22,717 nucleotides of DNA from positions 1-22,717 of the forward strand of contig CAXHAT010000135.1 in NCBI GenBank assembly GCA_964014485.1. Reading direction: 5' to 3'. A program made the translations under genes and the position numbers. Position 1 is the stretch's first letter; every line of letters begins with the position of its first letter. The stretch comes from an uncultured Deferribacteres bacterium (lineage in GTDB: Bacteria > Zhuqueibacterota > Zhuqueibacteria > Zhuqueibacterales > Geothermadaptataceae). Shown in pieces: positions 595 through 21,603 of this stretch. Under the pieces are notes generated by a model that was not told the origin of the DNA, ran no database searches, and saw only the letters and a program-made list of their open reading frames with translations.

Positions 595-1247
595 TCTTCG
601 GTGACGCCTCCCACGATTCGCACAACTCTGTGGTTAAATTTCTCGATCAGATTGAAATTATGCGTCGCCATAACCACCGCCGTGCCGCGAGTGTTGATGC
701 GCTCTAAAATTTCCATGATTTCTTCCGCCGTCTCCATATCGAGATTGCCGGTTGGTTCGTCCGCCAAAAGCACGAACGGATCGTTGACAATGGCGCGGGC
801 AATAGCGACGCGTTGTTGCTCGCCGCCCGAAAGCTCGTTCGGCATTTTGTAACGTTTGTGGCTTATGCCGACCTCGGCCAAGACTCTCAGCACCTTCCGT
901 TTTATGTCGCGGCTGCGCGCGCCCGTTACGCGCAGGACAAACGCGATATTCTCAAAAACGTCACGATCTTCCAACAAACGAAAATCCTGAAAAACAACGC
1001 CAAGCTGTCGTCGCATCAGCGCGACTTCTTTTGCTTTCACGTTCACCGAGTTCAATTGCCCGACTTGAACTTGGCCGTAAGTTGGGAAAACGCCAAAATA
1101 GATTAGCCGCAAGAGCGTACTTTTTCCCGCTCCGCTGGCGCCGCAAACATAGACAAATTCGCCCTGCTCGACGTCAAAATTTGCCTCGCGCAAACCTTCT
1201 CCGCCGGGATAATCCACCCTTGCGTTTGTAATTCGAATCACTCTCAT
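591..1247 (-). CDS. ftsE: Cell division ATP-binding protein FtsE
   Basis: Walker [46 protein letters not shown]; 218 aa; followed by ftsX. Confidence 0.93.
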
Positions 1248-1265
1248 CGCTTAAAGGCTGGTTGT

Positions 1266-1561
1266 TTTTTTGACGGGATGAACGGAATTAACCGGATATT
1301 TTTGTAACCAGTACCACTTAAATAAATCCGGTCTCTCTATCTGACACTTTTTTGTAAACCGCCTTCTCGAACCGTTGAAAGCTCCAGTTTTGTCATTCTG
1401 AAGGAATCTTTGTCATCGCCCAGTACAGATCATGCTCAAAAGTTCAAGGGTTGGATTAAAAAAGATGCTTTCAGCATGACAATTCCGGCCTTTTTCGCCA
1501 GTCTTGGAAGGCTATACAAAAAGTGTCAGGTAGTGAAAAATCCTGTTCATCCTGTCAAAAA
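1266..1561. repeat. Nested inverted repeats / REP-like palindromic intergenic element
   Basis: Outer ttttgacgggatgaac...gttcatcctgtcaaaa; middle ctgacacttttttgta (1341)...tacaaaaagtgtcag (1529); inner tgtcattctgaaggaatct (1391)...agatgctttcagcatgaca (1481). Confidence 0.65.
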
Positions 1562-1578
1562 CAAATCAAGCGCGTCAG

Positions 1579-2001
1579 TTATTTTTGCTGATTATAATCG
1601 AAATTGACCATCCAGCGCACACCGAATTTATCCGTACACGCGCCAAAATATGAGCCCCAGAACATATCGTCCAGCGGCATATCAATATTCCCGCCTTTTG
1701 AAAGTCCATCAAAAATGCGCTTCGTTTCTTCCTTACTCTCCGGGCTGACGGAAATATGGACGTTGTTCCCAACCGACAGTGGCGGTCCCATGCCTTCCAT
1801 CGTATCAGAGCCCATCAGCATGGAAGCGCCGACCGGCAACGAGACGTGCATCACTTTTTCTTGCTGATCAGCGGGCATTTTATCGCTGTCAGGCATATCT
1901 TTAAAACGCTGAAATACAGCGAATTCGCCGCCGAAGACTGACTTGTAAAAATTAAACGCTTCTTCCGTTTCGCCATCAAAATTCAAGTAGGGGTTTAACA
2001 T
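1579..2001 (-). CDS. VOC/glyoxalase superfamily, PhnB-like protein
   Basis: LNPYLNFDG..EEAFNFYKSVFGG, VMHVSL, LMGSD, FWGSYFG..TDKFGVRWMVN. Confidence 0.9.
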   Translation of the reverse strand: MLNPYLNFDGETEEAFNFYKSVFGGEFAVFQRFKDMPDSDKMPADQQEKVMHVSLPVGASMLMGSDTMEGMGPPLSVGNNVHISVSPESKEETKRIFDGLSKGGNIDMPLDDMFWGSYFGACTDKFGVRWMVNFDYNQQK

Positions 2002-2028
2002 AATTATTCTCTCTCTTTTTTTAGGTAA

Positions 2029-2269
2029 CTGATGTTACGCACGGCAACGCACATCCTGAGTCTTAATGCAAATCTCTTCTCATTAGCGCCGGACTTCAGT
2101 CCGGTGACGCGGAAAACGCCCTTCTTTCTCTCTTCCGCCGCGCCAGCGCGGCGGAAGAGAGGAGATAGTCGTCTTCAAAAACTCCGTTCTGAAGAGCGGA
2201 GCTAATGAGAATCAAAAGTTGCCCGCAGGCTCTGATCGTATGTGCCAGACGATGCGTGCGTAACATCAG
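2029..2269. mobile_element. MITE-like element 1 (241 bp)
   Basis: Perfect 15-bp terminal inverted repeat CTGATGTTACGCACG; 8-bp direct repeat TTAGGTAA at 2021-2028 and 2270-2277; palindromic interior. Confidence 0.8.
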
Positions 2270-2284
2270 TTAGGTAAACGTCTC

Positions 2285-3052
2285 TCATCTCTTTCTTAAA
2301 ACAAAATGCACGCGATGCGCATTTTCCTTGCCCGGGCGCTTGGTAAAATCAGTGTATGCGCCGAGAATTCGCCACCCCTCCGCAGCGTGAATCATCCGCC
2401 GAACCTCGTCCAAGGGATACATTTTTTGGACATGCCGCTCGAAATAAGGCGCGTCGTTAATTTGAATTGAAAAATCGTTGTATTGAAATCCCGTTGCGGC
2501 GTTAAAATAGGTGTGGCGCTCGAATTCAATGCCGTCGACTTCATCATTCTCGCTGTAATTACGAAAATTCTCCCGGCAATTCCAGATCGTGCAAACGTCA
2601 AAAATAAAAACGCCGCCGCGTTTCAGCGCCTGCCCGGCGTTTCGAAGAGCTGCAATAAAATCGCTCTCGTTCAGGCAGTAATTGATGCTGTCGTAGAGAC
2701 AAATGATCGCATTGAAATTTTCGCGCACGGAAAAATTCCGCATATCGCCGCACCACAACTTCGCCTGATTTCCAAACGTTCCTAATCTTTTCTGAGCCAA
2801 ATTGAGCATGGGACGCGAGCGATCCATGCCCCAGACTTGCCAGCCGCGTTCGCAAAACATTTCCAAAACCCTGCCTGAGCCGCATGCAATCTCCAAAACT
2901 TCTCCTGGCTCATCCACACGTCGTTCAAGAATTTCATGGACATATTCAAACCAGGGACGATACTGGACGTGCCGCATCAAAAAATCATAAAACGTCGCGA
3001 CTTTTTCATACTCAGGAACCGACACGGCTCCTTCTAACGGTTGCAACTGCAA
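2285..3052 (-). CDS. Class I SAM-dependent methyltransferase (start may be GTG at 3025)
   Basis: VLEIACGSG motif I, GMDRS, GDMRNF, CLYDSINY, LKRGGVFIFD. Confidence 0.9.
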   Translation of the reverse strand: MQLQPLEGAVSVPEYEKVATFYDFLMRHVQYRPWFEYVHEILERRVDEPGEVLEIACGSGRVLEMFCERGWQVWGMDRSRPMLNLAQKRLGTFGNQAKLWCGDMRNFSVRENFNAIICLYDSINYCLNESDFIAALRNAGQALKRGGVFIFDVCTIWNCRENFRNYSENDEVDGIEFERHTYFNAATGFQYNDFSIQINDAPYFERHVQKMYPLDEVRRMIHAAEGWRILGAYTDFTKRPGKENAHRVHFVLRKR

Positions 3053-4016
3053 GTCGAATCGCCTCTAACATGCTTTCGGGAGACGCCACATTTTTCCCCG
3101 CTATTTCAAACGCCGTCCCGTGATCCGGCGACGTTCTCACAAACGGAAGACCGCAAGTATAATTAACGCCTTTGCCCGCCGCAAGCATTTTTACGGGGAT
3201 CAAGCCCTGGTCATGATACATCGTCAAGTAGGCGTCGTATTTTTGTACGGTTCTGATCCGGCTGAAAAGTGCGTCGGCGGGAAAGGGCCCTTCCGCCCGG
3301 ACGCCCTCTTTTCTCAACTTCTCAATTGCAGGCGAGATGACTTCAATCTCTTCTCGGCCAAACTCACCTGATTCCCCGGCGTGCGGATTTAAGCCGGTCA
3401 GCGCAATTTTCGGTTCAGAAATACCAAATCTCGTTTTCAATTCATCATCTAACACACAAGCGACTTTCAAAAGTCGTTCCTGCGTCAGCGCTTGAGGGAC
3501 ATCCTTGAGAGCAAGGTGCGTTGTTGCAACGGCGACGCGAAACTCCCCGGCAATGAGCAGCATGACCGGCGTGGAATCGCCGGAAAGATGCGCCAAAAAC
3601 TCCGTGTGTCCGGGAAATTGAAACCCAGCCATTCTGAGCGCCAATTTAGAAATCGGCGCGGTCACGATTGCGTCTACCCTGCCGTCCATCGCCAATTTTG
3701 CCGCGTACTCGATACTTGCCGCCGCCAATTCTCCGGACTCGCGGGTCGCAGCGCCCGGCTCAAGCGTCCGATCATTTCCTGCAAAAGGCGGTTCAACAAA
3801 ACTTTGGGGGTATTCCGAGATTTTATCAAATTTTACAACGGGGATGGAAAACGCGTCAATTCCGAGACGGTTCCCCCAGGCTTTTATGATTTCGGCGGGA
3901 GAGATCACGCAATAATTTGCGTCTTTCGGCAAGTTAGGATGGCTCAGAGACTTGAGAACCACTTCCGGCCCAATGCCGTTTTTGTCTCCAATGGTAATAG
4001 CGATGCGGGGGTTCAT
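3012..4016 (-). CDS. pdxA: 4-hydroxythreonine-4-phosphate dehydrogenase
   Basis: GDKNGIGPEV, FPGHTEFL, GLNPHAGE, MYHDQGLIP, RTSPDHGTAFEIAGK. Confidence 0.95.
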   Translation of the reverse strand: MNPRIAITIGDKNGIGPEVVLKSLSHPNLPKDANYCVISPAEIIKAWGNRLGIDAFSIPVVKFDKISEYPQSFVEPPFAGNDRTLEPGAATRESGELAAASIEYAAKLAMDGRVDAIVTAPISKLALRMAGFQFPGHTEFLAHLSGDSTPVMLLIAGEFRVAVATTHLALKDVPQALTQERLLKVACVLDDELKTRFGISEPKIALTGLNPHAGESGEFGREEIEVISPAIEKLRKEGVRAEGPFPADALFSRIRTVQKYDAYLTMYHDQGLIPVKMLAAGKGVNYTCGLPFVRTSPDHGTAFEIAGKNVASPESMLEAIRLAVATVRRSRVGS

Positions 4017-4090
4017 ATCGGCGGGTATGATTTAAACTGAAAAATGTAAATCAACTTTCTCTGGCAGAACAATTGTTTTTTTAATGTTAA

Positions 4091-4372
4091 CTGATGTTAC
4101 GCGCAGTTAAGCATTTCCGAGACTCAACCGAAAACAGCATCTCATTACGCCTCGTTCCCAAACTCCGGTTTGGGAATGAAAATGGGCGCGAAACTCCGGT
4201 TTCGAACCAAAGCCCTCAGTCGAAACTGGAGTTTCGAGTGCAATTGCGTTCCCAATCCCGAGATTGGGAACGAGAATTTTGGGCGTCTCGAAATTAGGTT
4301 GGCGGTAGGGCGCCGCCGCCGAATGACTTTAACAAGAGTTTCTACGGCGTCGCTGCTCTCGCGTAACATCAG
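4091..4372. mobile_element. MITE-like element 2 (282 bp)
   Basis: 13-bp TIR CTGATGTTACGCG, sharing 12 bp with element 1; 7-bp direct repeat ATGTTAA at 4084-4090 and 4373-4379. Confidence 0.78.
4151..4274. repeat. REP-like composite palindrome, copy 1
   Basis: ctcgttcccaaactccggtttgggaatga...gaaactggagtttcg...gcgttcccaatcccgagattgggaacgag; reverse-complement homolog at 22527-22645. Confidence 0.8.
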
Positions 4373-4488
4373 ATGTTAAATTATTCTGTCATTGTTATTC
4401 AAAACGCAGAGACGCAAAGGGCGCTGAGAAGCGCAGAAAAAATTGAATTGTGAGTGCATTTTGGACAATGGGCTAATCATGAAGCACC

Positions 4489-4725
4489 TCAAAGCCTGTC
4501 AAAATTCTCCGGCTCAACATCCGGGACGGCGTTCATGACTTTCTCAAAATCTTCACGCCTGCCTTTCGCCGCTTCCGCTTTTAGATAATCCTCGGTCAGC
4601 AATGCGGACATTTTTTCCGCCGCGGCGGCCACCAGAAACTGATTGATTGAAATGCCTTCGGATTTCGCCAAATCCTTGATTTTATTGTACAGCGACACAG
4701 GCAATTTTAATGGGAAGTTTATCAT
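4489..4725 (-). CDS. Ribbon-helix-helix (CopG/HicB-type) antitoxin-like protein, 78 aa
   Basis: MINFPLKLPVSLYNKIKDLAKSEGISINQFLVAAAAEK; ATG overlaps the upstream stop (ATGA). Confidence 0.8.
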   Translation of the reverse strand: MINFPLKLPVSLYNKIKDLAKSEGISINQFLVAAAAEKMSALLTEDYLKAEAAKGRREDFEKVMNAVPDVEPENFDRL

Positions 4726-5084
4726 GCGGCAACACGCTTGGGCAGAGGTGGAATTTGGGGCGAAAATGAAAGACCAACCGCCAGAAAATCGCTCACCGGA
4801 GGCGATGTAATCACTGAAATGACCGCTTGCCACAAGCCGTCCGGCAGGTTCCGTAATTCATGGATCGGAATATTCAACGGCGCGTCGCGATGGAATTCCC
4901 GCATTCGGGAAAAATTGATCAAAGTCAGCCCAACCGCCCGCGGCTCCCGATCCGGCGGACTCCCCGCATCCAACCGAAGTAAAAGATTGTCCGCCAACTC
5001 TACGCCCGTGACATGATCGCTCTTGCCAAAGGAGACGTAAAGCACATCGCCTTCCTGATCGTAGTTGAGTTTTGTATCAGTCAT
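4722..5084 (-). CDS. DUF2283-like protein
   Basis: KLNYDQEGDVLYVSF...GVELADNLLLRLD...AVGLTLINFS pattern; ATG at 5084 (TTG at 5096 alternative). Confidence 0.7.
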   Translation of the reverse strand: MTDTKLNYDQEGDVLYVSFGKSDHVTGVELADNLLLRLDAGSPPDREPRAVGLTLINFSRMREFHRDAPLNIPIHELRNLPDGLWQAVISVITSPPVSDFLAVGLSFSPQIPPLPKRVAA

Positions 5085-5252
5085 TTCTTCGTCCAAAACT
5101 TACTGTTTGGCATTTTGTTTCACTGCATACTATTTTTATAAAAATTACGCTCTCGCTGTCAAAAGCACAACTACAAAATAGCCTTGCGTGCTCTTGAGCG
5201 TATTCCACTCCCTAAAATAACCAAATCATTCAAATCACCAAATAGCCGAGCG

Positions 5253-5363
5253 TGATTGTCCTCAGCGAACTGCTCGAACAGAGATGCTGAAGTCGAAGTC
5301 GAAGCGGTAGTTGTCGCAACTGCCGAAGTAGAAACTGGCAACCCACGCCGAAGAAGCAGTTTT
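5253..5363 (-). repeat. DGR variable repeat VR-B
   Basis: Ungapped 111-nt alignment to TR 8116-8226: 18 mismatches at TR adenines, 2 at non-A positions (both T>C). Confidence 0.93.
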
Positions 5364-6494
5364 CTTGTCCGCCGTCCAGATCCAGCGCTGGGTCGCGTCA
5401 AAAACTTCGTCGATAAACAAGCCGTTTTTGCCCTTCTTCGGCGCCATCAAACTCATGCCTTCCTCCAGCGTCGGCAAGCGCCAGTCGTTAAAGCCGCCGA
5501 ATTTCTCAGCATTCAACGAGTCGATATAATCTTGCGCGCTTTTGAACTTCATGTAATCTTTCGAGCCGCTTTGCTGCCAAGTCAGGCCGGTCGCGTGGTC
5601 AAGTATCGAGACCGCGCCGTTTTTGTCGATTTGCTCGAATTGATTCTGAACACCTTCTCCTGAAGCGTTTTTCCTTTTGTCGTAAAATCCTTTTTCTTGC
5701 AACATTTCCTTAACCGCTTTCTCGGACAACGATTCCGCCGGTTTGGAGCGCAACGATACGGGCGGGGATTTCGAGACTGAGGCTTTGGCTGGCGCGTTTC
5801 TTCGCGTTTCGTTTTGCCGGAGACGGGCTTCCAATTCGGTCAGTTGCTTTTCCCGACGCAAAAGTTTGTCGTTCAGCGCTTCTACTTCGCGCACGGCTTT
5901 TTCCGCCCGTGCCGTTTCGCTTTGCCAGCGCTTTTTCAAGGCCTCGTGTTCAGCACGCAAAACGGCCTTGGCAAGGTCGGCGTTTTTTTGCCTGAGTTCG
6001 GCTTGCAGTTTCGCCAATTCTTCCGCCGGAACCGTCTCGCCGCGCAGCCTGGGTTTGAAATCCTGCACTGGATTGCTCGCATCCCGCGACCAGTTCGGGA
6101 AATCGTGCAAGGATTCGGCGATCTCCTTTTCGAGCGCTTTCAGGCCGTCGATGGATTGTTTGTAAATAATGCAGCGGTAATTGCGGATGTCAAACGGCAA
6201 GTCGTTGGCGCTTTGGGCGCACATGATGGTTTTGTTGCCGATGGCGTGCGCCACGCCCATTTCGTAGAACACGTTGGGATTCATGTCGCTGAGCTCGGCC
6301 ACAACCGCATCGGCGCGGAACAGGTGCTGGATGATTTTTTTGTTAATGTTGAAATGCCCCTTCAGTTCATCCACGCGCACCGCCCGAAATCCGGCGGCCT
6401 CGCACGCAGGCGCGACGGCGTACTTGTATACCTCCAATCGCTCCTCGCTGAACGGCATAATCACAAAGCAGATTTTTTGTTTTTCCTGGGTCAT
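5262..6494 (-). CDS. DGR target B: N-terminal nucleoside deoxyribosyltransferase/TIR-like Rossmannoid domain, coiled coil, C-terminal DUF1566 (Lcl/CLec-fold) domain
   Basis: CFVIMPF...ADAVVAELSDMNPNVFYEMGVAHA...LPFDI; heptad-rich aa ~155-232; DHATGLTWQQ, DWRLPTLEE, WIWTAD, VRAVR. Confidence 0.88.
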   Translation of the reverse strand: MTQEKQKICFVIMPFSEERLEVYKYAVAPACEAAGFRAVRVDELKGHFNINKKIIQHLFRADAVVAELSDMNPNVFYEMGVAHAIGNKTIMCAQSANDLPFDIRNYRCIIYKQSIDGLKALEKEIAESLHDFPNWSRDASNPVQDFKPRLRGETVPAEELAKLQAELRQKNADLAKAVLRAEHEALKKRWQSETARAEKAVREVEALNDKLLRREKQLTELEARLRQNETRRNAPAKASVSKSPPVSLRSKPAESLSEKAVKEMLQEKGFYDKRKNASGEGVQNQFEQIDKNGAVSILDHATGLTWQQSGSKDYMKFKSAQDYIDSLNAEKFGGFNDWRLPTLEEGMSLMAPKKGKNGLFIDEVFDATQRWIWTADKKTASSAWVASFYFGSCDNYRFDFDFSISVRAVR

Positions 6495-6614: not shown

Positions 6615-8144
6615 TCAAAGCGTTCTACCGTTAAAGCTCTCTTCGTAGCCGTCTATGATCATGTACGGCAAGCGCTCTTTAGCGTACAAGCACTCTCTCC
6701 CCGTTTGTCGAACCGCGAGTACAGGTATTTTGGCGTGCTCGAGTTTTTTCACCATACGCGGCAGCAATTTGGCTGGAAACCCGCACGCATGGCGATAGCC
6801 CCGCCAACCTTTTATAACGTTCACGTCCAGCGCCGGCGCCAATTCCACGGCTTGCTTACCCAAAACTTCATAGTAGTTTCCGATTTGAATCAAACGGGCG
6901 TAGTTGCCATATTTCCATCCCAGCCAGCTTACTTGCCGTTTGAGCGTCGGCTGTTTGCGAAGACCGGCGTCGAATCGTTTCACTTTTTTGTTCGAAATCG
7001 AGAAATAGCGTTGCAGAAAAGCGTGTTTTTGCCAGAGCTTTTGGAGAAGATTGTCGCAATCAGCGTGTTGAAAATGCCCGAGATAAGCATTGATCGCCGC
7101 CGTCAGCGCATCGATTTCCTCGGAATCGAAACGGTACATCGTAAAGCTCCGCCGCAGTTGCACATTCCTGACGCGAAAAATCTTCAGCTTCGTCTTCAGA
7201 TTCCCAACCGTGCGCCGCCGCACCAGGCAATAATTCGGGCGAACGACAAATCCGCCAAAATCGACCCCGCCGGTAACAAGGCCGAGCTTTGTCGCTTTCG
7301 GGTTCAATTTCAATCGGAGTTTTTCAGCGAGAAACCGCCTGATTTCTTCCTGCCACGTTCTCAATTTCACAGCGTCACAATGCAGAAGAACCAGGTCATC
7401 GACATAGCGCAGATAAAAGCGGCATTTAAGATCGTGTTTCACGAACTGATCCAGCGCGTTGAGATAAACATTGGCGAAAAACTGGCTGGTGAGGTTGCCG
7501 ATGGGCAAGCCGCAATCGGGTCTGGCGTGAAACAGTGATTTATGCGGCGGCAAACGAAAACGCAAATTTTCCCGATCCTTCATTTCGTAATCCTGCGTGC
7601 AGTCGTGGAAAATGACGGTTTCGAGCAGCCATCGCAGATCGGGACGGTGATGCTTTTGCGCCAGCATTTCGAACAGGAGGCGCCGGTCGATGGTCATGAA
7701 GAAGTTGCGGATATCGAGTTTGAGGTAAAACGCGCGCTTCCGGCCGCCGTGCGTGACGCGTCGCTGCATTTTTTGTAATTGATCGACCGCCAAATGCGCG
7801 CCTTTTTCCGGGCGGCAGGCAAAGGAATGGAAGATAAAAGTCTTTTCCCAAATCGGAGAGATGTGATTATAGATCAGATGATGCACCACGCGATCTCTGA
7901 AATCCGCCGCGAAAATTTCACGGCATTTGGGCTTTTCCGTGTAGAAACAAATAGAAGCGGACGGCCGGTAACGGCGCTCCAGCAACTCCTCGGTGAGATC
8001 GACCAGGTTTTGCTCCAGATCGACCTCGAACGCCAGTGCGCTCAGCTTGTTGCGTTTGTTCGCGCGGCAATCGCGCCAGGCGCGGTACACTTGCTGAAAA
8101 TTGAAGAAGGGGTGATGATTTTCCTCAGCGAACTGCTCGAACAT
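6615..8144 (-). CDS. DGR reverse transcriptase with C-terminal MutS domain I-like extension (~509 aa)
   Basis: PKCREIFAADFRDRVVHH, KLDIRNFF, GLPIGNLTSQFFAN (DGR-type signature), YLRYVDD, GVDFGGF; likely ATG at 8144 inside the TR 3' end. Confidence 0.95.
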   Translation of the reverse strand: MFEQFAEENHHPFFNFQQVYRAWRDCRANKRNKLSALAFEVDLEQNLVDLTEELLERRYRPSASICFYTEKPKCREIFAADFRDRVVHHLIYNHISPIWEKTFIFHSFACRPEKGAHLAVDQLQKMQRRVTHGGRKRAFYLKLDIRNFFMTIDRRLLFEMLAQKHHRPDLRWLLETVIFHDCTQDYEMKDRENLRFRLPPHKSLFHARPDCGLPIGNLTSQFFANVYLNALDQFVKHDLKCRFYLRYVDDLVLLHCDAVKLRTWQEEIRRFLAEKLRLKLNPKATKLGLVTGGVDFGGFVVRPNYCLVRRRTVGNLKTKLKIFRVRNVQLRRSFTMYRFDSEEIDALTAAINAYLGHFQHADCDNLLQKLWQKHAFLQRYFSISNKKVKRFDAGLRKQPTLKRQVSWLGWKYGNYARLIQIGNYYEVLGKQAVELAPALDVNVIKGWRGYRHACGFPAKLLPRMVKKLEHAKIPVLAVRQTGRECLYAKERLPYMIIDGYEESFNGRTL

Positions 8145-8226
8145 AGTTGTTGTTGTTGTTGTCGATGTGGTTGTTGTTGCAATTGCCATTGTTGAAATTG
8201 ACAACCCACGCCGAAGAAGCAGTTTT
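8116..8226 (-). ncRNA. DGR template repeat (TR)
   Basis: Reads AAA ACT GCT TCT TCG GCG TGG GTT GTC AAT TTC AAC AAT GGC AAT TGC AAC AAC AAC CAC ATC GAC (AAC)5 TAT GTT CGA GCA GTT CGC TGA GGA AAA TCA; 12 AAY codons; lies between avd and RT. Confidence 0.95.
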
Positions 8227-8402
8227 GTCCCGATGCTTGTCGAGCGGCCGGCAGGCGTTTTTCGCCGCCCGCCAACCAGCCTAATTGCGAAGCCTCCACT
8301 TCTCTCGCAAGAGCTCAGGAGGGCGCTGAAACATGCCGTTGCTGCAAAGCTTGTTTGCGACAACGGCGACCGGGATGCACAATCATCGTATGAGCGCGCT
8401 CC

Positions 8403-8789
8403 TCACGCCGGGGGGCCGGTCATGAGCGATTCCGGCTTTTCCTTCTTCATTGCCGTTCCCAGCCATCCTTCATTTTGTCTGATAATTTCAATGACGAGAT
8501 TGACGCTGTGCTGGTAGGAGTTGGCATTCGGGAACGCCTTGAGATCGCGGCAGAGGCGAATCGTCAATTTCAATTCTTCCAGCGTGTTGCGGTTTTGCAA
8601 AAGCAGTAGGGTTTTATCATGCGCGTCATTTGCCTGACGAATGTTTTGCACCACTCGGCGCGAAAGCCGGCGCAAATCCTCGCCGAGACCGTACTTGTGG
8701 TAACGGCCAAAATTGCGCACCAGTTTCTCGAAGTACAGCGTCAGATCGTACGCCTTTTTATAAATGGGCAAATGTTCGTATCTCGCCAT
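8403..8789 (-). CDS. avd: DGR accessory variability determinant (Avd-like four-helix bundle)
   Basis: 128 aa, basic, HLPIYKKAYDL...F.RYHKYGLGEDLR...LEELKLTIRL...EI.RQ..GW; adjacent to TR and RT. Confidence 0.88.
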   Translation of the reverse strand: MARYEHLPIYKKAYDLTLYFEKLVRNFGRYHKYGLGEDLRRLSRRVVQNIRQANDAHDKTLLLLQNRNTLEELKLTIRLCRDLKAFPNANSYQHSVNLVIEIIRQNEGWLGTAMKKEKPESLMTGPPA

Positions 8790-8832: not shown

Positions 8833-8946
8833 TGATTGTCCTCAGCGAACTGCTCGAACAAAGACGTTGAAGACGTTGCTGACGACGTGGAAGTAGCTGC
8901 AAAAGCCACTGCTGAAAAGGACAACCCACGCCGAAGAAGCAGAGTA
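8833..8946 (-). repeat. DGR variable repeat VR-A
   Basis: Aligns to TR with one extra NNC codon; 22-24 mismatches depending on gap placement, all at TR adenines. Confidence 0.93.
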
Positions 8947-10638
8947 TTTATCCGCCGTCCATATCCAGCGCTGTTGAGCGCTGAAAATTTCATCAATAAA
9001 AAGACCGCCTGCGTTCTCTTTGGGCTCCATCAAGGACATCGCTTCTTCCAGCGTCGGCAGGCGCCAATCCCTGAATCCGGCGAATTGGATTTGATTGAGC
9101 GAGTCAATATACGCTTGCGCCTGAGCGTATGCCAAGCTCGTTGAGCCGCTTTGCTGCCAAGTCAGGCCGGTCGCCTCGTCTTGTACGATTTTGGCGCCGG
9201 AAATTTCGCGCGCAGTGAATCGATTGTCCAGGCCTTTGCCATTTGGATTATAACCGCGATCGTAAAAGCCGCGGCGTTTGATCATGGCTTCGGCTTCGGT
9301 GCGCGAGAGAAACGATGGTTTTAACCTGCTCAGATTCGTGCGCATCGCAAGCGAATCGCGTTGTTTTGCAGCGTCCAGGTCGAGCGGCAGGGGTAGCGCG
9401 TCTTCGGGCGGGTCTGTTTGCGCGGTTGCGGGGGGCTGCGGCGTCTCTTGCGGTGCGGCGCTGGCTTTATTGCTGGTATAAATCTCGCCGTCCTTCCCGG
9501 ATTGCGCCACCTGGAAGGTCGCGGGCGGTTCGCCGGGTTTGCGCGGCATGTCGTAACTGTTGACGCCGATCGCGACCAGCGGCTCTTCCCGGTTTTTATA
9601 GATCATCGTCACCGGATTGTCCGAAGCCAATTCCGGCGGCGGCCCCGTCCATTCCAGGCGTTCGATATTGTCACCAATCAAGGTTGCTTTCAAGTGAATG
9701 AGCGGTTCGCCGTCCAGGGCGTCGACGGACGGCGGCGGTTTGGGGTAAAATCGGAAGGTAAAGCGCTGGCGCTGCAAGTCTTCCGGCAGGCGCAGCATTT
9801 CCAGTTCGGCAATGTTGCCGGCGCCAAAGCGGTTGCGTCCCGGCGCCATGAACTGGGCGTAGCTTTTGACGTCGTAGTAAAAATTTCCCGCCCCGTCTTT
9901 CACGCGAAAGGCAAAAAAGTCCTCGCTAAAACGCGGATCCTCCGGCTTGATTTTCGGCAGATTGGCAATGCGCGCTTCAAATTCGAAAAAGGTGACGCCG
10001 GTTTCCTGATCGGTCACTCTCCGTGCAGGCAGGGGCAAATGTACGGGCTCGCCGTCGAGATTGAAAACGACGTCCACGGCAAGAGTATCGGCGGGAATTT
10101 GTGACGGACTGGCGGCTTTTCCCTTCAAAATGCGTTGGTCAGGCTCGCCTTCCACTGGTGAAACTTCGCCTTGCACAAGCGGAATTCTGGTGTCGAACTC
10201 AACCGTCAAGGTGTCGCTGAAGTTGCCGTCGAACCCGACCACAACTTTGTGCAGGCCGTCGGTGAGTTTTTGCGGGGTGAGAAATTCGGGATCGAGGGTG
10301 AAACGCCATAGCCAGGTTTCTTCGTCCAGTCTGGTCGGCGTTACGGGATCGAGCAGGCGTACGCCGTCGAATTCGAGTGAGAGCGGCTTGTTTTTGCGCG
10401 CGGCGTTGTTCAGGCACACCACCTGCAAGCCGGAATCGGGGCGTGTAATCGGCTTCAAAAGCGCAAAACGCGGCGGGTCTTCCGGGGCGGGCTTTTGGCA
10501 GATAAAAGGCAACACGCCTACCGCCAGGGCAGCCAGCGCGGGAATCGCGATTTTCCACCATTCAAGGCGATGTTTTTGGCGCTTATGCGCCGTTTCCTCT
10601 GGCGCTGGGCGCTTGTTTTTGGGTTTTCTTCGACTCAC
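8842..10638 (-). CDS. DGR target A: N-terminal membrane anchor, beta-rich middle region, Pro-rich linker, C-terminal DUF1566/CLec domain
   Basis: Basic N-terminus then WWKIAIPALAALAVGVLPFIC; DEATGLTWQQ, DWRLPTLEEAMSL, WIWTAD, VRAVR; GTG start. Confidence 0.85.
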   Translation of the reverse strand: MSRRKPKNKRPAPEETAHKRQKHRLEWWKIAIPALAALAVGVLPFICQKPAPEDPPRFALLKPITRPDSGLQVVCLNNAARKNKPLSLEFDGVRLLDPVTPTRLDEETWLWRFTLDPEFLTPQKLTDGLHKVVVGFDGNFSDTLTVEFDTRIPLVQGEVSPVEGEPDQRILKGKAASPSQIPADTLAVDVVFNLDGEPVHLPLPARRVTDQETGVTFFEFEARIANLPKIKPEDPRFSEDFFAFRVKDGAGNFYYDVKSYAQFMAPGRNRFGAGNIAELEMLRLPEDLQRQRFTFRFYPKPPPSVDALDGEPLIHLKATLIGDNIERLEWTGPPPELASDNPVTMIYKNREEPLVAIGVNSYDMPRKPGEPPATFQVAQSGKDGEIYTSNKASAAPQETPQPPATAQTDPPEDALPLPLDLDAAKQRDSLAMRTNLSRLKPSFLSRTEAEAMIKRRGFYDRGYNPNGKGLDNRFTAREISGAKIVQDEATGLTWQQSGSTSLAYAQAQAYIDSLNQIQFAGFRDWRLPTLEEAMSLMEPKENAGGLFIDEIFSAQQRWIWTADKYSASSAWVVLFSSGFCSYFHVVSNVFNVFVRAVR

Positions 10639-10725: not shown

Positions 10726-11997
10726 TCAAGTCTTACGTTTTTTCTTACGTGCCGCCGGAAAGAGCACGTTGTTAAGAATCAGACGGTAGCCAGGCGAATT
10801 TTTGTGGAGAGAAAGCTGCGTCGGTGGGTCGTAGACGAAGTGGCGATAGTCTTCTGGATCGTGACCGCCGTAAAACGTGAATTGCCCGCGCCCAATGTTA
10901 CCGTGAATGTACTTGACTTCTTCCGTGCCCGGAATCTCGCCCAACATCGTCACGCTGTCCTTAATGAGTGAACGCCGGTACCCGGTCGTTTGCCCCATGA
11001 ATCCTTTCACAACGTTGACGTGATTCTGTGTCAGCATGGCCGGAACGGGATCGTACTTGGCGGAGAATTCGAACAAGGTAAAATAATCCGACGCTTCGTT
11101 GCGCGCCAAAGGTAGATGACTCGGCGGCATATCGATGTCGGAATATTCGTAAACCATTGGATTTTTCATCAATTCAAAATTTTCAAAAGCGAGGGTCCAG
11201 GAATAATCGAGCTTTTCCTGCGCGGTCGGGTCGGCGGGATCGCCGTCGTAGATCGTGTCAACCATGTCAACTTTCGCGGCGGCCAGGGCGATATCGAAAG
11301 AATCGGTGGCCGAGCACATGGCGAACAAAAAACCGCCGCCAACGGCGTAATCGCGGATGCGCAAAGCGACGGCACGCTTGAGTTCGCTCACCTTCGCGAA
11401 ACCCAGCTTTTTCGCCAGCGCTTCGTTTTTCGAAACTTCTTCCTGATACCAGGCGGTGTTGTGGTAGCTCGCGTAAAATTTGCCGTACTGGCCGGTGAAA
11501 TCTTCGTGGTGCAAGTGCAGCCAGTCGAAATTTTTCAGCCCGTCCTTGAGCACGTCTTCATCCCAGATTTTTTCGTACTCAATTTCCGCGTAGGTCAGCG
11601 CCATGGTCACGGCGTCATCCCAAACTTGCTTGTTTCCGGGCGTATAAACGGCGATTTTCGGCGCTTTTTCCAGCAGCACCAAGTCCATGTTGTTGGCTTC
11701 AATTTCCGCCTGAATTTGCGCTGCGTCGCTGCCGGAAATTTTGCTGAACGCCACGCCGCGCACGCGCAATTCGTTTTCAAGCTCCCGGTAGTGATCGATC
11801 ATGAACGAGCCGCCGCGATAATTCAGCAGCCAATCGACGCTCACCCCCTGCTTCAAAACCCAAAACGCAACGCCGTAGGCTTTGAGATGATCGGTTTGCT
11901 TCAAATCCATGTAAATCAAAACTTTATTCGCGAGCGCAGGGCCGGCAATCAACAGAAAGGCGATGGTTAGCAAAGTTGCTCTTGTTTTGTTCTTCAT
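10726..11997 (-). CDS. Conserved secreted protein of the family often labelled 'asparagine synthetase B' in Bacteroidota-like genomes (function unverified)
   Basis: Signal peptide MKNKTRATLLTIAFLLIAGPALA; HLKAYG, WLLNYRGGSF, DWLHLHHEDFTGQYGKF, GGHDPEDY, SPGYRLILNNVLFPAA. Confidence 0.75.
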   Translation of the reverse strand: MKNKTRATLLTIAFLLIAGPALANKVLIYMDLKQTDHLKAYGVAFWVLKQGVSVDWLLNYRGGSFMIDHYRELENELRVRGVAFSKISGSDAAQIQAEIEANNMDLVLLEKAPKIAVYTPGNKQVWDDAVTMALTYAEIEYEKIWDEDVLKDGLKNFDWLHLHHEDFTGQYGKFYASYHNTAWYQEEVSKNEALAKKLGFAKVSELKRAVALRIRDYAVGGGFLFAMCSATDSFDIALAAAKVDMVDTIYDGDPADPTAQEKLDYSWTLAFENFELMKNPMVYEYSDIDMPPSHLPLARNEASDYFTLFEFSAKYDPVPAMLTQNHVNVVKGFMGQTTGYRRSLIKDSVTMLGEIPGTEEVKYIHGNIGRGQFTFYGGHDPEDYRHFVYDPPTQLSLHKNSPGYRLILNNVLFPAARKKKRKT

Positions 11998-12004
11998 CCC
12001 GAGT

Positions 12005-12322
12005 TTACTCGTCATTGACGTCATGAATATTATTGGCGTTTTGGGCTTGTCTGAATCTTGAAACCGTCTCCATCGCTGCATCATCAAGAAACTCAGCCCC
12101 ACAATTCGTACAGGAAAATCTCTCCAAATTCGGCAAAATCGCACCATCATTGAGTTTGCATGGACCGCCAGTTCGCATCATTGTTTTTTCACCACATTCC
12201 GGGCACGTTAGTATGGACGGTAGATCTTGCCACCATGCATCGGCGGAAGACGACACTTCCCTAGGCTTGGTCCGTTGTGCACTTTTTTTATTCTGTAGAG
12301 CGCTTTGAGGAAATAATGACAT
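12005..12322 (-). CDS. YgiT/MqsA-type zinc-finger protein (antitoxin-like)
   Basis: CPECG...CTNCGAEFLDDAAM; overlaps the upstream toxin-like gene. Confidence 0.7.
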   Translation of the reverse strand: MSLFPQSALQNKKSAQRTKPREVSSSADAWWQDLPSILTCPECGEKTMMRTGGPCKLNDGAILPNLERFSCTNCGAEFLDDAAMETVSRFRQAQNANNIHDVNDE

Positions 12323-12596
12323 AGAAAACCTCTTGATTCATTTCTTTTTGAATCTTCCCTTTCGTATACACAGCCAGACCGTCGAAGGTCAAACCCTTGA
12401 TAACATAAAGCGTTTCTCGTTTATTTGTTTTAGGGTTTCGTGATCGAAGTTTTTTGAAAATCGACGGTGCGTTCAGAAGCGCTTCGTATACCATTTCTTT
12501 GGTTAAATGGTCAGCGGTCATTTCATTTTCGGCTTTCAAAGTAAAGACAACGCGGCGAGCGATTATAAGTCGTTTTATCCGTATAAATACATCCAT
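12288..12596 (-). CDS. DUF4258/RelE-MqsR-like putative toxin
   Basis: 102 aa basic; VVFTLKAENEM..D.LT...V.EALL...LYVIKG...YVIISSK; paired with zinc-finger gene. Confidence 0.6.
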   Translation of the reverse strand: MDVFIRIKRLIIARRVVFTLKAENEMTADHLTKEMVYEALLNAPSIFKKLRSRNPKTNKRETLYVIKGLTFDGLAVYTKGKIQKEMNQEVFYVIISSKRSTE

Positions 12597-12972
12597 TTCA
12601 CATGAGCTACGAATCGAAACAAAGCCAAACGTTCAAAACCCTTGCAACTAAAATAGTCGAGCGTCGGCAAAAACACAAGCAAACAAAAAAAGCGAAATCT
12701 CAACGACCTGAACCAACATGCAGCATTCCGGCAGTTTACGCCGCTACATTCACGGATCATTGCTCAATCTCATCGGGCAACAAGAATCGAGGCTAGTTTT
12801 GCACAAGGTCAGGAACTTCGTCGCGCCAAAAATGTATGACGGACGAACCGCTTTCCATTGCAACAATTACCCGCCGCCTTGACGATAAGTGTTTGCTCTG
12901 TTGATGGAATATTCTTTATATTCAGCGCCGTTCTTCTCAAGTAATCCCGGTATAAACGAACAACGCAGGTTC

Positions 12973-15900
12973 ATGCAATTTATGCGACCTATTTATTTCC
13001 TCGTTATCGCGCTTTTGCTCACGCTCTTTTGCAGCGATCTTTTTTCGCAAAAATCCGCCGTTTTACACACGGCGACCAGCGCTTCAAACCTGCGCCTTCA
13101 GCTCAAATTTAATTCTCCTGAGCTCGACACCCTTCTCATCGACAACCGCGCCTTTGTCTGCCCGAACCTCGTTTCAGAAAACGGACTTTATTTTCATCAG
13201 ATTGACGGCCTCCCGGTCGCCGGGACGGCGCTGGCCTTGCCGCACGCGAGTCAAAATCCGCGTCTCACCATCACCAATGAAAACTGGGAAAATATTCAGA
13301 CCTCGCTGCCGCTTGCTCCGCCTGCGCAAATTCAGCCGGACGGTGAGTTGACGTATTTTTCTTACCAGGCGCAAACAAGTGATCAAGCCGCGCCAAGTCC
13401 CGCGGTTTCTTTAGACCGCACCGCATGGTTCCGCAATCTCAAAGTCGCTCATCTGACCATTTCTCCGACCCGCCTGCAAAATAATCAACTCCAATATTTA
13501 AGGAGCGCCGAGGTCATTCTGCAATGGGAAAATACGGCGTCCGGAGCTTCGATTCAAAGCTTCGATGCAGGTCGTGAATTTAATGCCGGGCAAGACGATT
13601 TTGACTACGCACAATCCGTCTTGAATAAAAGCGACGCCACCCGATTTCTCAAGCCGCGCGCAAAACCGGCGGCCAAATCTGCAAATTTCGCCAACCGCGA
13701 TTTTTTGTTGGTTCAAGTGACGGAAAACGGCTGGTATCAAATTACCGGCGCGGACTTGACGGCGCAAAATATCAGTCTCTCGGGCTTGCAGTCCGACCAA
13801 ATTCGGATGTACAACAACGGCGGGCGCACGCTGCCGGAAAAGCCGTCTGATACACGGCCTGAAACGTTGATCGAAATTCCGATTTTGGTGAACGACGGCG
13901 GCGACGGCAGTTTCGATCCTGATGATACAATTCAGTTCTTCGGCGCGAGCGTGCATGATTGGGAATACTCGCAAACCGAGGCCAGATGGCGGCGTTTTAA
14001 CAATCCCTATACCAACGAGAACGTTTATTGGCTTTCCTGGGATGCTCAGGAAAGTGCGGCAAAACGATTGGCGGAAATTTCCATCGCGGCAAATGCCGGT
14101 CAGGCAAAAAGTGCGGGGTTGAATCTGCAAAAAATCGAGACCGACATTGTCAATCCCATCAATTCAGGTCGTGATTGGTACGGTCGCGAATTATCGCTCT
14201 CCGACGCCACGGCGAACTACTCTTTTAACCGAACTGCCGGGCAAGCGCTGCAAAACGGACGCATCTATTTACGTGTGGTTTCCAAGACCAGCGGCAGGCA
14301 TACCGTTTCTCTTGGCTGGAATCAAAACTCACTTAACACCTATAGTTTTTTCGGCTCGACCGGCGGCGATTACTTGGACATGAACGGCCAGACCTACACC
14401 GCCAATGTTCCCAACACACTCATTCAAGCCGAAAATACGCTGACCTTAAATTACAGCAATACGCTGCAAACCGGTTCGCTTTTTGTCGATTGGGTGGAGT
14501 TTATTGCGGAAGACGATTTGGCGGTTCAGGACGGTGAATTGACGTTTGCCGCTGCGCCAAGCTCCGGGATCGAAACTTGGCGAGTTACCGGAGCAGGTTC
14601 GGACGCCCGTATTTTTGAAATCTCAAATCCCGTTGCGCCGCGAACGCTCGCATTCACCCAACAAGGCGAGACGCTGATTTTTGCAGATTCGATGAACACA
14701 GCCACGCCTAAAAGGTATTTCATTGCTGATGTGCCGAAAGCGCCCGCGGCATTCGAGCGTTACACCACTTCAGACATTCGCGGCTCGTCAAACACAGCCG
14801 ATATGCTCGTGGTCACGCACAGCGATTTTCTGGACGAGGCCAATCGCTTTGCCGAGCACAAACGCTCAGTTCGCAATTTTGAAGTCGCTGTTGTTGACGT
14901 GAACGTTGTGATGAAGGAATTTGGCTGGGGGCTGATGGACCCGACCGCGATACGTGACTTTGTCGCCTATGCGTTTCACAATTGGCAAAAGCAGCCGCAG
15001 TATCTCGTGCTTTTCGGGGACGGCGTTTATGATTATCGCGGCATTGGGCGCGGCATAAACCAAAACTTTGTGCCGACATTTCAAACGACAGAGCTTGAAG
15101 AACTGGTCAATCGCAACCTTGAAGCCTACTACACTTACGTCAACGGCGACGATCGCGACATGGATTTGTCGATGGGTCGTATCCCGGCGCAAACGATTGA
15201 TGAGGCGCGAAATTTTGTCGACAAACTCATCGAATATGAAACGAAACCGGAATTCGGCTTTTGGCGCACGATTCTGACGATGGTCGCAGATGACGAACTC
15301 GTCACCGGCGGGCGGGACAACGGCGAAGTCATCCATACTAAGGACGCCGAAATTATCGCTGAACGACACACGCCGGATTACCTGAATCTTAGCAAAATTT
15401 ACCTGACCGAATACGAAGGCGTGCGCACAGCTTCGGTTTCCGGGGTTCGCAAGCCGCAAGCTCAACAAGCGCTGATCGACCGCATTAACAGCGGCACCCT
15501 GGTCTTGAATTATGTCGGGCACGGCAATTCAACGCAGTGGGCGCACGAAGTCGTTTTTGAGTTGGCGCAGGATTTCCCTTCGTTGCAAAATGATCGTAAG
15601 TACCCGTTCATCGTCGCAGCGACTTGCGATTTTGGCCGTTACGATAAATTGAATTCGCAGAGTTTTCCTGAAGAATTGCTTTTTGCGCGCGGTAAAGGGG
15701 CGGTTGGCTTGTTCACTTCGAGCCGCGTTGTTTACGCCCAACCAAACGCAACATTTAACAAAGCCTATTACGATATATTGTTCACAGAATCGCCGGGAAG
15801 TATTTCTATTGGCGAAGCGTTGATTTTGGCAAGGATGCAAACTCCGGCGGGATTTGTCGTCAACGATGAAAAATTCACCATTCTCGGCGATCCGTCTCTA

Positions 15901-21513: not shown

Positions 21514-21603
21514 TCAAGATTGTCCGGAACGAACAGCGCGGACGTAGTTGCCGTCGCCGACATGATCGTTGTCGCAACCACCGTAGTTGAAAAGGACAAC
21601 CCA
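21514..21603 (-). repeat. VR-like region of target C (diverged relative to the local TR)
   Basis: TGG GTT GTC CTT TTC AAC TAC GGT GGT TGC GAC AAC GAT CAT GTC GGC GAC GGC AAC TAC GTC CGC GCT GTT CGT TCC GGA CAA; A-site changes plus 8 non-A changes and two fewer codons. Confidence 0.7.

Follow-up and report, generated by a model that had tools for sequence, protein, structure and literature searches.

The window, by which the whole 22,717-nucleotide stretch of DNA under analysis is meant, almost certainly contains a complete, chromosomally located DGR, encoded on the minus strand in the order target-Avd-TR-RT-target, with an RT in which a DGR-type core and a C-terminal homologue of MutS domain I are naturally fused. 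The following features were placed:

about 5253-5367: VR1 of target gene 1, by alignment to TR
5262-6494, minus strand: target gene 1 (410 aa), with a C-terminal Lcl_C domain (DUF1566-type C-type-lectin fold; Pfam, 70.4 bits)
6615-8144, minus strand: DGR RT gene (509 aa plus stop), by open reading frame and translation (Pfam RVT_1, 60.4 bits)
6651-6944, minus strand: MutS domain I-like tail of about 100 aa, RT residues 401-498, by Pfam, profile, hhalign and fold searches
6867-6881, minus strand: GNYYE, the Tyr-x-Glu counterpart of MutS GDFYE (Phe-x-Glu), by translation and alignment to the host MutS
6945-6992, minus strand: linker from RT thumb to tail, RT residues 385-400, by alignment and AF2 model
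7248-7928, minus strand: RT polymerase core (RVT_1 match by Pfam), RT residues 73-299, including PIGNLTSQFFANVYL and the catalytic RYVDDL
8116-8230, minus strand: TR (repeat family D2), by three-way alignment, with A-specific differences from both VRs
8403-8789, minus strand: avd accessory gene (128 aa), by Pfam bAvd (38.8 bits, E 1.5e-9) and 23S_rRNA_IVP (33.4 bits, E 5.5e-8), both scores lying slightly below the cut-offs of 40 and 33.8 bits
about 8833-8950: VR2 of target gene 2, by alignment to TR
8842-10638, minus strand: target gene 2 (598 aa), with a C-terminal Lcl_C domain (Pfam, 75.3 bits)

Compared with TR, VR1 is changed at 18 of the 40 TR adenines and at 5 of the 73 other positions, and VR2 at 23 of 40 and 3 of 73, respectively. 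This concentration of differences on TR adenines implies that the DGR has been active, and the locus is apparently a clean, active example of its kind. Three sequencing runs of a single study contain the stretch, as contigs only; no alternative letters were seen at the VRs across these runs, and no RNA dataset is among them. The only depth peak in the runs, at 8048-8181, was traced to unrelated contigs that match the (AAC)n-like stretch of TR.

The RT gene lies in an uninterrupted frame on the minus strand (6615-8363, 582 aa), which stays open upstream of the ATG and through TR. Translation likely starts at the ATG at 8144, so that TR overlaps the first RT codons and the product has 509 aa; a recorded protein of this length has exactly the same sequence. 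The protein contains PIGNLTSQ besides the catalytic motif, and 8ub7_A, the RT chain of a Bordetella-phage DGR, is hit by the RT family profile with an E value of 1.2e-47. Judged by sequence, it would class as a DGR RT, given a core kin to DGR RTs, a catalytic YxDD and an adenine-specific TR/VR pair. The full-length AF2 model has a pLDDT of 89.8 and a pTM of 0.79.

A sequence-only reading of this DNA had proposed that the RT ends in a module resembling the MutS domain that recognises mismatches. The peptide quoted there is present as written at the C-terminus of the single minus-strand frame, and the interval given for it (6660-6920) falls within the domain as placed here. Searched alone, the tail scores 22.7-23.1 bits for Pfam MutS_I (PF01624; E 9e-5 to 1.2e-4, profile positions 5-86 of 113), above the gathering cut-off of 20.6 bits; a six-frame search of the genome gives 22.7 bits and the whole 582-aa frame 19.7 bits, just below the cut-off. 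The same profile is matched by 25 of 33 family members at E <= 0.01, the best at 9.9e-14. A single-sequence phmmer search of the tail against the PDB was weak and not significant (Taq MutS, E 0.31). The profile of the 33-member family matches residues 16-98 of Taq MutS (1ewq) with an E value of 3.8e-11 and residues 13-98 of E. coli MutS with an E value of about 1e-3. When 19 tails were compared by hhalign with the N-terminus of the host's own MutS, a probability of 96.5% was obtained (E 8.2e-10). This alignment pairs IQIGNYYEVLGKQA with FRMGDFYEMFYEDA and sets Tyr on Phe and Glu on Glu, which bears out the earlier proposal that a Tyr replaces the mismatch-stacking Phe and that the Glu is retained. 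The converse search, with the tail profile as query, finds the N-terminus of canonical MutS at 41-51 bits in 26 of the 29 genomes of the order.

The fold agrees with these matches, and with both lines of evidence the tail is confirmed as a true homologue of MutS domain I. Its AF2 model (pLDDT 90.9) gave 52 Foldseek matches in the PDB at E <= 1e-3; among the matches listed, all were MutS, MSH3 or MSH6, with TMq values of 0.59-0.72 and a best E value of 2e-6. A VIA-align scan of 48,161 chains returned MSH3 (Z 13.9), Taq MutS (13.1) and MSH6 (12.3 and 11.4), the next fold after the MutS family being XPB (Z 5.1). A nuclease or RNase H role of the tail was considered and rejected, since nothing outside the MutS family reached Z 5.2 and tRNA-splicing endonuclease scored 3.2-3.3. 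MutS domains II-V, which comprise the connector, clamp and ATPase, are absent from the RT protein, for which Pfam returns RVT_1 and MutS_I only; the chain ends about 11 residues past domain I. By comparison, the canonical MutS in locus L009 matches all five MutS domains. From its domain content, the RT would thus not qualify as a canonical MutS repair ATPase.

The GNYYE site, which we take to be the counterpart of the MutS Phe-x-Glu mismatch-contact motif, comprises Tyr424 and Glu426 in RT numbering. Across 19 tails, Gly38, Glu42, Gly71 and Arg107 (RT residue 491) never vary, and at position 40 there is a Tyr in 16 tails and a Phe in the other 3. In the 33-member set, 31 rows are filled at these sites; 29 of them have an aromatic residue at position 40, and 29 have the Glu. 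Such conservation at the family level suggests that the mismatch-contact residues are under selection. Taken as a whole, the tail is conserved, if less strongly than the core: pairwise identity averages 0.47 in the tail and 0.62 in the core (36 pairs). All 19 tails are basic, with pI values of 9.1-11.6 (10.0 in the window), and this high pI is peculiar to the tail family, as is a WRG[FY] motif. The tail is open, of full length and equipped with an intact motif in the window, and likewise in a second DGR that the genome carries and at 8 other loci; in the relative L013 it is degenerate and lacks the motif. For the linker, pairwise identity averages 0.38 in 9 related RTs. In the full-length AF2 model it forms a hairpin and a short helix at pLDDT values of about 88-91 with no dip, and the model weakly suggests that the tail is docked on the thumb and not loosely tethered.

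RTs with this tail occur in 10 of the 29 genomes of the window's order, and the RT-MutS_I fusion is common in related bacteria. An index-free HMMER scan for the tail family retrieved 31 representatives at E <= 1e-3 among 1.84 billion, and related loci were sought with a 4-row alignment of full RTs. In a word-index protein search with the tail region, the window's own protein was the sole match (1 among 178 candidates), and phage and plasmid collections, searched with the tail by tblastn, gave nothing at E <= 1. The tail profile found 9 matches in the size class of 45-221 aa, all with PF01624. These short stand-alone matches may be fragments of RT genes; one of them (P0041) bears the source name 'Retron-type reverse transcriptase [Candidatus Magnetoovum chiemensis]'. 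In a sister clade of DGRs from the rumen, the RTs are entirely without the tail, and none of 26 ORFs in 5 of its loci is a split-off MutS_I ORF at E <= 0.01. Neither the window's DGR nor 9 related tail-bearing loci hold a separate MutS_I ORF.

One step of DGR retrohoming is the survival of mutagenised cDNA in cells proficient in repair, and the candidate that most readily suggests itself for coping with mismatch repair is an RT-borne mismatch-sensing domain. The host has such repair to evade, as it encodes a canonical MutS on contig C18 (150.3 bits, 882-aa frame). It is conceivable, with a probability of about 0.4, that the tail binds DNA in cis, as a module that favours mispaired or kinked stretches and that holds the RT-Avd-cDNA particle on the cDNA/VR heteroduplex and stabilises this duplex, hinders the host MutS, or both. 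The adenine-mutagenised cDNA would pair with the variable repeat to give a heavily mismatched duplex, the tail would bind the mispaired or kinked DNA and keep the particle in place, and the duplex would thereby be stabilised and/or escape recognition by MutS. Because the tail comes without ATPase or MutL-contacting parts, it could occupy mismatches without triggering repair. The narrower proposal that the MutS-related domain is an anti-repair device, occupying cDNA/VR mispairs and blocking restoration of the parental sequence by MutS-MutL, is rather unlikely. If it were true, fused tails and MSL proteins would be the first dedicated DGR factors for evasion of mismatch repair, and both could serve as portable parts that make DGR-based directed evolution more efficient where the host is proficient in repair.

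That mismatch repair acts on DGR products is indicated by two recent reports. According to a study of a Bacteroides DGR, deletion of mutS raises VR mutagenesis 5- to 10-fold and repair of the heteroduplex is all-or-nothing (10.1101/2024.11.15.621889); in a study in E. coli, suppression of mismatch repair was used to boost DGR editing (10.64898/2026.07.21.739853). A literature search for binding or genetic data on the RT-fused tail or the stand-alone MSL returned mentions in surveys only. Each tail provides one wedge for the 18-23 changed adenines per VR, so that, if repair is all-or-nothing here as in Bacteroides, shielding would need many molecules or another mode. Isolated MutS domain I without the clamp domains binds DNA weakly. 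The distribution of MutS gives little guidance. The canonical protein is encoded by 10 of 10 tail-bearing and 16 of 19 tail-less genomes of the order, and its presence is thus no discriminator for the shielding idea. In the wider set, MutS was not found in two small tail-bearing assemblies, namely G005, of 2.0 Mb, where the motif is intact, and G007, of 2.4 Mb, where the tail is degenerate, an absence read at the level of the assemblies; it is encoded by G010, the only tail-less rumen-clade genome searched. According to Wu et al. (2018, PMC5758913), a C-terminal extension is missing from about 80% of DGR RTs, and the Bordetella phage DGR does not require MutS. These points, from the single wedge per tail onwards, count against the mismatch-binding reading, as does the lack of a separate MutS_I ORF in the rumen loci.

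Three other explanations of the tail have to be weighed against mismatch binding. It might be a general anchor for nucleic acid, be it TR RNA, cDNA or target DNA, or for the RT-Avd assembly, without mismatch specificity and with the aromatic-x-Glu pair serving folding or generic stacking. This reading, itself somewhat doubtful, would fit the basic character of all 19 tails, which differs from the pI of about 7.2 of stand-alone MSL (Wu et al.), the seemingly rigid position of the tail after the thumb in the AF2 model and the use of unrelated nucleic-acid-binding accessories such as Avd and HRDC by other DGRs (PMC5758913); the sister clade does without the tail, which is hence dispensable there. 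A generic anchor, however, would have no need for an invariant Glu with an aromatic residue two positions earlier, and these are the mismatch residues of MutS. Alternatively, the tail could act during cDNA synthesis, contacting the nascent RNA:cDNA duplex by the thumb, stabilising A:N mispairs and aiding extension past misincorporations, and so would serve processivity or mutagenesis. Adenine mutagenesis by DGRs does yield mispairs in the RT's own product, and the linker that joins tail and thumb is short and confidently modelled, but it is in kinked DNA of B form that mismatches are recognised by MutS domain I, which is not known to do so in an A-form RNA:DNA hybrid. Moreover, most DGR RTs carry out mutagenesis with no tail of this kind (PMC5758913), and a role in synthesis appears improbable.

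The tail could finally be the decaying remnant of an old fusion, devoid of present function. The degenerate tail of L013 with its lost motif, the complete lack of a tail in the sister clade and a conservation below that of the core all lean this way. Decay is nevertheless very hard to reconcile with the full-length, open and motif-bearing tails of the window, of the genome's second DGR and of 8 other loci, with the occurrence of tails in 10 genomes out of the 29 in the order, and with a confident fold that has kept 47% mean identity while the cores are 62% identical. Binding of mismatched DNA by the tail is retained as the preferred reading, at the odds given above.

Several known systems can be set beside this locus. 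The BPP-1 bRT-Avd complex (PDB 8ub7 series) shares with the window a homologous RT core, an adjacent Avd and adenine-specific differences between TR and VR; its RT chain 8ub7_A (328 residues) has no counterpart of the tail, and the family profile matches it over the RT part only (positions 14-320 of 513). The BPP-1 element has been reconstituted in laboratory E. coli (PMC12875486; 10.64898/2026.07.21.739853). Domain I of canonical MutS, MSH6 and MSH3 (PF01624; Taq MutS 1ewq, E. coli MutS 1e3m) shares the fold of the tail (Z 11.4-13.9) and aligned motifs, namely G-x-aromatic-x-E, CGFP (matching AGIP/AGFP) and V-x-Q (matching V-C-E-Q), whereas the tail lacks domains II-V, the ATPase and the dimerisation parts and has Tyr for the stacking Phe. 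Stand-alone MutS-like accessories are also known: MSL is encoded by a separate gene that is always next to avd (112-283 aa, pI 7.2 +/- 1.7; Architecture D in Wu et al. 2018, PMC5758913, with 16 MSL proteins), and the Bacteroides study describes Msl as such an accessory of Bacteroides DGRs (10.1101/2024.11.15.621889). Going by these descriptions, MSL and the tail are both homologues of the MutS mismatch domain recruited by a DGR; MSL is a separate, near-neutral protein, whereas the tail is basic and continues the RT frame with no stop between. The attachment of the tail to the RT alongside Avd, as the sequence-only reading had it, is borne out, but the novelty that it implied was overstated.

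The RT-MutS_I design has been in print since 2018, when Wu et al. (NAR 46:11, PMC5758913) described a MutS_I motif in the C-terminal extension of three related DGR RTs, listed in their Table S1 as FP929063.1 (Ca. Magnetobacterium bavaricum), FR695874.1 (uncultured Desulfobacterium sp.) and AMWB01060384.1 (bioreactor metagenome). Two of the three share the TG-AVD-TR-RT-TG (B1) order of the window and its two C-terminal DUF1566-type targets; the likeness is drawn from published description, architecture and target type. With a post-thumb extension that matches MutS_I, the window RT would fall into this class, as a further example with a different sequence from a different genome. The similarity to MutS_I, which Wu et al. 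termed 'weak', here draws support from profiles of the family, from searches by fold and from the conservation of the motif. What the window contributes is thus not discovery of the design but supporting detail, family-level evidence on the motif and a second such DGR in the same genome.

The C-terminal tail of the window's reverse transcriptase (RT) (RT residues 401-498, 6651-6944, minus strand) belongs to a complete diversity-generating retroelement (DGR), every part of which lies on the minus strand.

Parts of the DGR in the window
8842-10638, minus strand: target gene 2, with a C-terminal Lcl_C (DUF1566-type) domain
8403-8789, minus strand: avd (bAvd 38.8 bits, E 1.5e-9, slightly below the cut-off of 40)
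about 8116-8230, minus strand: template repeat (TR), from repeat comparison
6615-8144, minus strand: RT, with a predicted 509-aa product
5262-6494, minus strand: target gene 1, with an Lcl_C domain

RT and tail form a single minus-strand open frame (6615-8363) that also contains the TR. Translation probably begins at the ATG at 8144, a position common to the related RTs, and a database protein identical in sequence and length to the resulting 509-aa RT is on record. The aligned repeat comprises 40 TR adenines and 73 other positions; the variable repeat (VR) of target gene 1 is changed at 18 and 5 of these, that of target gene 2 at 23 and 3, respectively. Such adenine-concentrated differences are the signature of a DGR and indicate that the element has been active. 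The (AAC)n-like TR stretch (8048-8181; GTTGTT... on the plus strand) reached a depth of 3162-5862 from thousands of unrelated metagenome contigs, and this peak was rejected as a measure of copy number and attributed to a low-complexity artefact. In target gene 1, the Lcl_C domain is preceded by a long helical region and, in front of that, by a weak nucleoside 2-deoxyribosyltransferase match (residues 44-98, 20.1 bits, below the cut-off of 28.8); the target (7326-8714) of the related locus L017 shows the same, and TIR_2-Lcl_C targets are found in the relatives L004 and L007. A 1357-aa protein encoded at 12889-16962 (plus strand), with a Peptidase_C25 (gingipain-type) domain (297.6 bits) and a C-terminal FlgD_ig, bears no relation to the DGR.

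Sequence profiles and structure identify the tail as MutS domain I. The Pfam MutS_I score taken alone is borderline, with 19.7 bits for RT residues 403-481 within the whole frame (cut-off 20.6) and 22.7-23.1 bits (E about 1e-4), above that cut-off, when the tail alone is the query; a single-sequence search of the tail against the PDB gave no significant match (E 0.31). When 1.84 billion representatives were scanned with HMMER without an index, the last 125 RT residues matched 31 proteins at E <= 1e-3, 12 of them at E <= 1e-10, always at the C-terminus and preceded by an RT thumb wherever enough sequence exists. The resulting 33-sequence family profile matched residues 16-98 of Taq MutS (E 3.8e-11) and 13-98 of E. 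coli MutS (E about 1e-3), and its RT part matched the Bordetella-phage DGR RT (8ub7) at E 1.2e-47. Compared individually with PF01624, 25 of the 33 sequences reach E <= 0.01 (best 9.9e-14). Alignment of 19 tails (domain only) with the N-terminus of the same genome's MutS by hhalign gave 96.5% probability (E 8.2e-10, 82 columns). In the reverse search against 29 genomes of the window's order, the tail profile matched the N-terminus of canonical MutS in 26, with scores of 41-51 bits, and RT tails, at 148-172 bits, are separated from this class by a clear gap. The published description speaks of 'weak identity'; the homology shown here is much firmer.

The structural comparison agrees. The AF2 model of the tail (pLDDT 90.9, pTM 0.82) retrieved 52 PDB chains with Foldseek at E <= 1e-3, the matches listed being MutS, MSH3 or MSH6 only. 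When 48,161 chains were scanned without Foldseek, MSH3 (Z 13.9), Taq MutS (13.1) and MSH6 (12.3 and 11.4) came out far ahead of the next-best fold, XPB (Z 5.1). The sequence-only reading, which had proposed a MutS domain I-like module at the RT C-terminus, is thereby borne out by Pfam, family profile, hhalign, AF2/Foldseek and fold scan alike. The full-length RT model (pLDDT 89.8, pTM 0.79) has no confidence drop at the linker (88-91), a hint at a tail docked behind the thumb and not loosely tethered.

In MutS, the Phe-x-Glu motif contacts the mismatch, the Phe stacking on it. The hhalign alignment pairs IQIGNYYEVLGKQA of the tail with FRMGDFYEMFYEDA of the host MutS, and confirms the earlier assignment of a Tyr to the mismatch-stacking Phe with the Glu kept (GNYYE motif, 6867-6881). 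Four residues (Gly38, Glu42, Gly71 and Arg107 in tail numbering) do not vary among the 19 tails, and the motif has Tyr (16 tails) or Phe (3 tails) as its first aromatic. Of the 31 rows filled at this position in the wider set of 33, 29 carry an aromatic residue; the Glu is likewise present in 29/31. Mean identity among nine close RTs (36 pairs) is 47% for the tail and 62% for the RT core.

A scan of species-representative genomes yielded 16 related loci.

Related loci by state of the RT C-terminus
Full tail: 8 loci (L004-L009, L017, L018)
Degenerate tail without the motif: 1 locus (L013)
End after the thumb, rumen bacteria: 4 loci (L010, L011, L014, L016)
Cut by the contig end or broken: 3 loci (L012, L015, L019)

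According to Pfam, all nine tail-bearing loci have Lcl_C targets, eight have bAvd (absent in L013) and seven have MutS_I in the RT at E <= 1e-3 (not L004 and L013). Among their 66 ORFs, no separate MutS_I ORF was found except in L009, where a canonical mutS with all five MutS domains (10811-13462, plus strand) follows the tail-bearing RT 3.3 kb downstream, which may be coincidence. In L013 (RT 1219-3081, plus strand), the tail has other residues in place of the G-x-Y-x-E and contains inserted sequence; Avd was not detected on its short contig. The tail-less rumen loci retain the order target, 128-aa ORF, RT, target, with MutS_I in 0/26 ORFs at E <= 0.01. An unrooted RT-core tree (19 rows, 372 columns) places the window's RT in a clade of nine RTs (support 100/99), all with the tail, and the rumen group in one clade (100/100). 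Excluding the three loci with missing ends, tail presence requires one change on this tree, with gain and loss indistinguishable.

Of the 29 genomes of the window's order, 10 encode an RT tail: 1/10 in its own family (the window's genome itself) and 9/19 in the sister family. Another genome of the order holds a 154-bit tail copy in a 158-aa open frame (G031:C21:36276-36617) with one TGA within the match, which may be a broken RT gene. Record titles of the related loci name KSB1, Cytophagia, Deltaproteobacteria, Myxococcales and Verrucomicrobiota. Four loci (L005, L006, L007, L017), titled KSB1, 'Cytophagia' or unclassified 'bacterium', are the same contigs and coordinates as genomes of the window's own order (G030, G025, G023, G027), so that titles are no safe basis for cross-phylum spread.

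The window's genome (8.4 Mb, 465 contigs) contains three MutS_I matches: the tail and the first two genes listed here.

Further genes in the window's genome
Contig C18: canonical MutS (MutS_I 150.3 bits, 882-aa frame)
Contig C74:26000-35511 (locus L020), 4034-5698, minus strand: second tail-bearing RT (MutS_I 36.4-39.9 bits, stronger than the window's tail)
Window 21514-22452, minus strand: third Lcl_C gene, with N-terminal TIR_2 (102.4 bits) and a VR at about 21518-21620, 13 kb from the window's DGR

The second DGR comprises a NACHT-LRR-Lcl_C target (1027 aa), Avd, TR, RT-MutS_I and an Lcl_C target (483 aa); C74 ends shortly beyond it. The two RTs are 56% identical and are not mutual nearest relatives in the RT tree. 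The C-terminal repeat of the third Lcl_C gene matches the C74 TR (L002 2932-3034) and not that of the window, differing from the former at 13/30 adenines and just 2/73 other positions and from the latter at 17/34 and 17/69. Since its differences are adenine-specific only against the C74 TR, sequence comparison assigns this gene to the second DGR as a remote target.

Behind the RT thumb, then, a MutS domain I homologue is fused without the other MutS domains; it is basic (pI 9.1-11.6 in 19/19 tails) and its counterparts of the MutS mismatch-contact residues are conserved. The sequence-only reading had suggested that it may bind or shield the mismatched cDNA/VR heteroduplex. We tentatively favour a related explanation (probability about 0.4): the tail would bind mispaired or kinked DNA in cis and keep the particle of RT, Avd and cDNA attached to the cDNA/VR duplex with its many mismatches, which might be stabilised and/or kept free of host MutS. 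Literature support may be seen in a Bacteroides DGR, where VR mutagenesis rose 5- to 10-fold once mutS was deleted and repair was all-or-nothing (10.1101/2024.11.15.621889), and in E. coli DGR engineering, where mismatch repair was suppressed (10.64898/2026.07.21.739853).

Against this explanation speaks that each RT carries a single putative wedge for roughly 18-23 changed adenine positions, and that MutS is just as common without the tail (16/19 tail-less and 10/10 tail-bearing genomes of the order). Isolated MutS domain I, moreover, binds DNA weakly. The sister clade functions with neither tail nor stand-alone MutS-like accessory protein (MSL), and two small, possibly incomplete tail-bearing assemblies showed no MutS, among them the 2.4-Mb assembly of L013 with zero MutS_I matches. 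The tail could instead be a generic nucleic-acid anchor, which we consider somewhat less likely. Action on the RNA:cDNA hybrid during synthesis appears improbable, and a remnant without present function very improbable indeed.

Fusions of this kind were already known and are common among the relatives. A C-terminal extension occurs in about 20% of DGR RTs (Wu et al., 2018, PMC5758913), and Table S1 of that study assigns MutS_I extensions to RTs of Ca. Magnetobacterium bavaricum, an uncultured Desulfobacterium and a bioreactor metagenome. The MutS-like accessory genes mentioned in the sequence-only reading are likewise on record there, MSL being defined in 16 DGRs, always with avd. In Bacteroides DGRs, Msl was noted without a functional test (10.1101/2024.11.15.621889), and our literature search found no paper testing the RT-fused or the stand-alone form. 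The target types seen here appear in a study of DGR-diversified antigen sensors (PNAS 2024, PMC10907252), which has 0 occurrences each of MutS and Avd; target gene 1 and the targets of L017, L004 and L007 fit its 'diversified sensor plus effector' proteins. The uncultured Desulfobacterium and bioreactor metagenome DGRs are described with the order TG-AVD-TR-RT-TG and DUF1566 targets (PMC5758913), exactly like the window.
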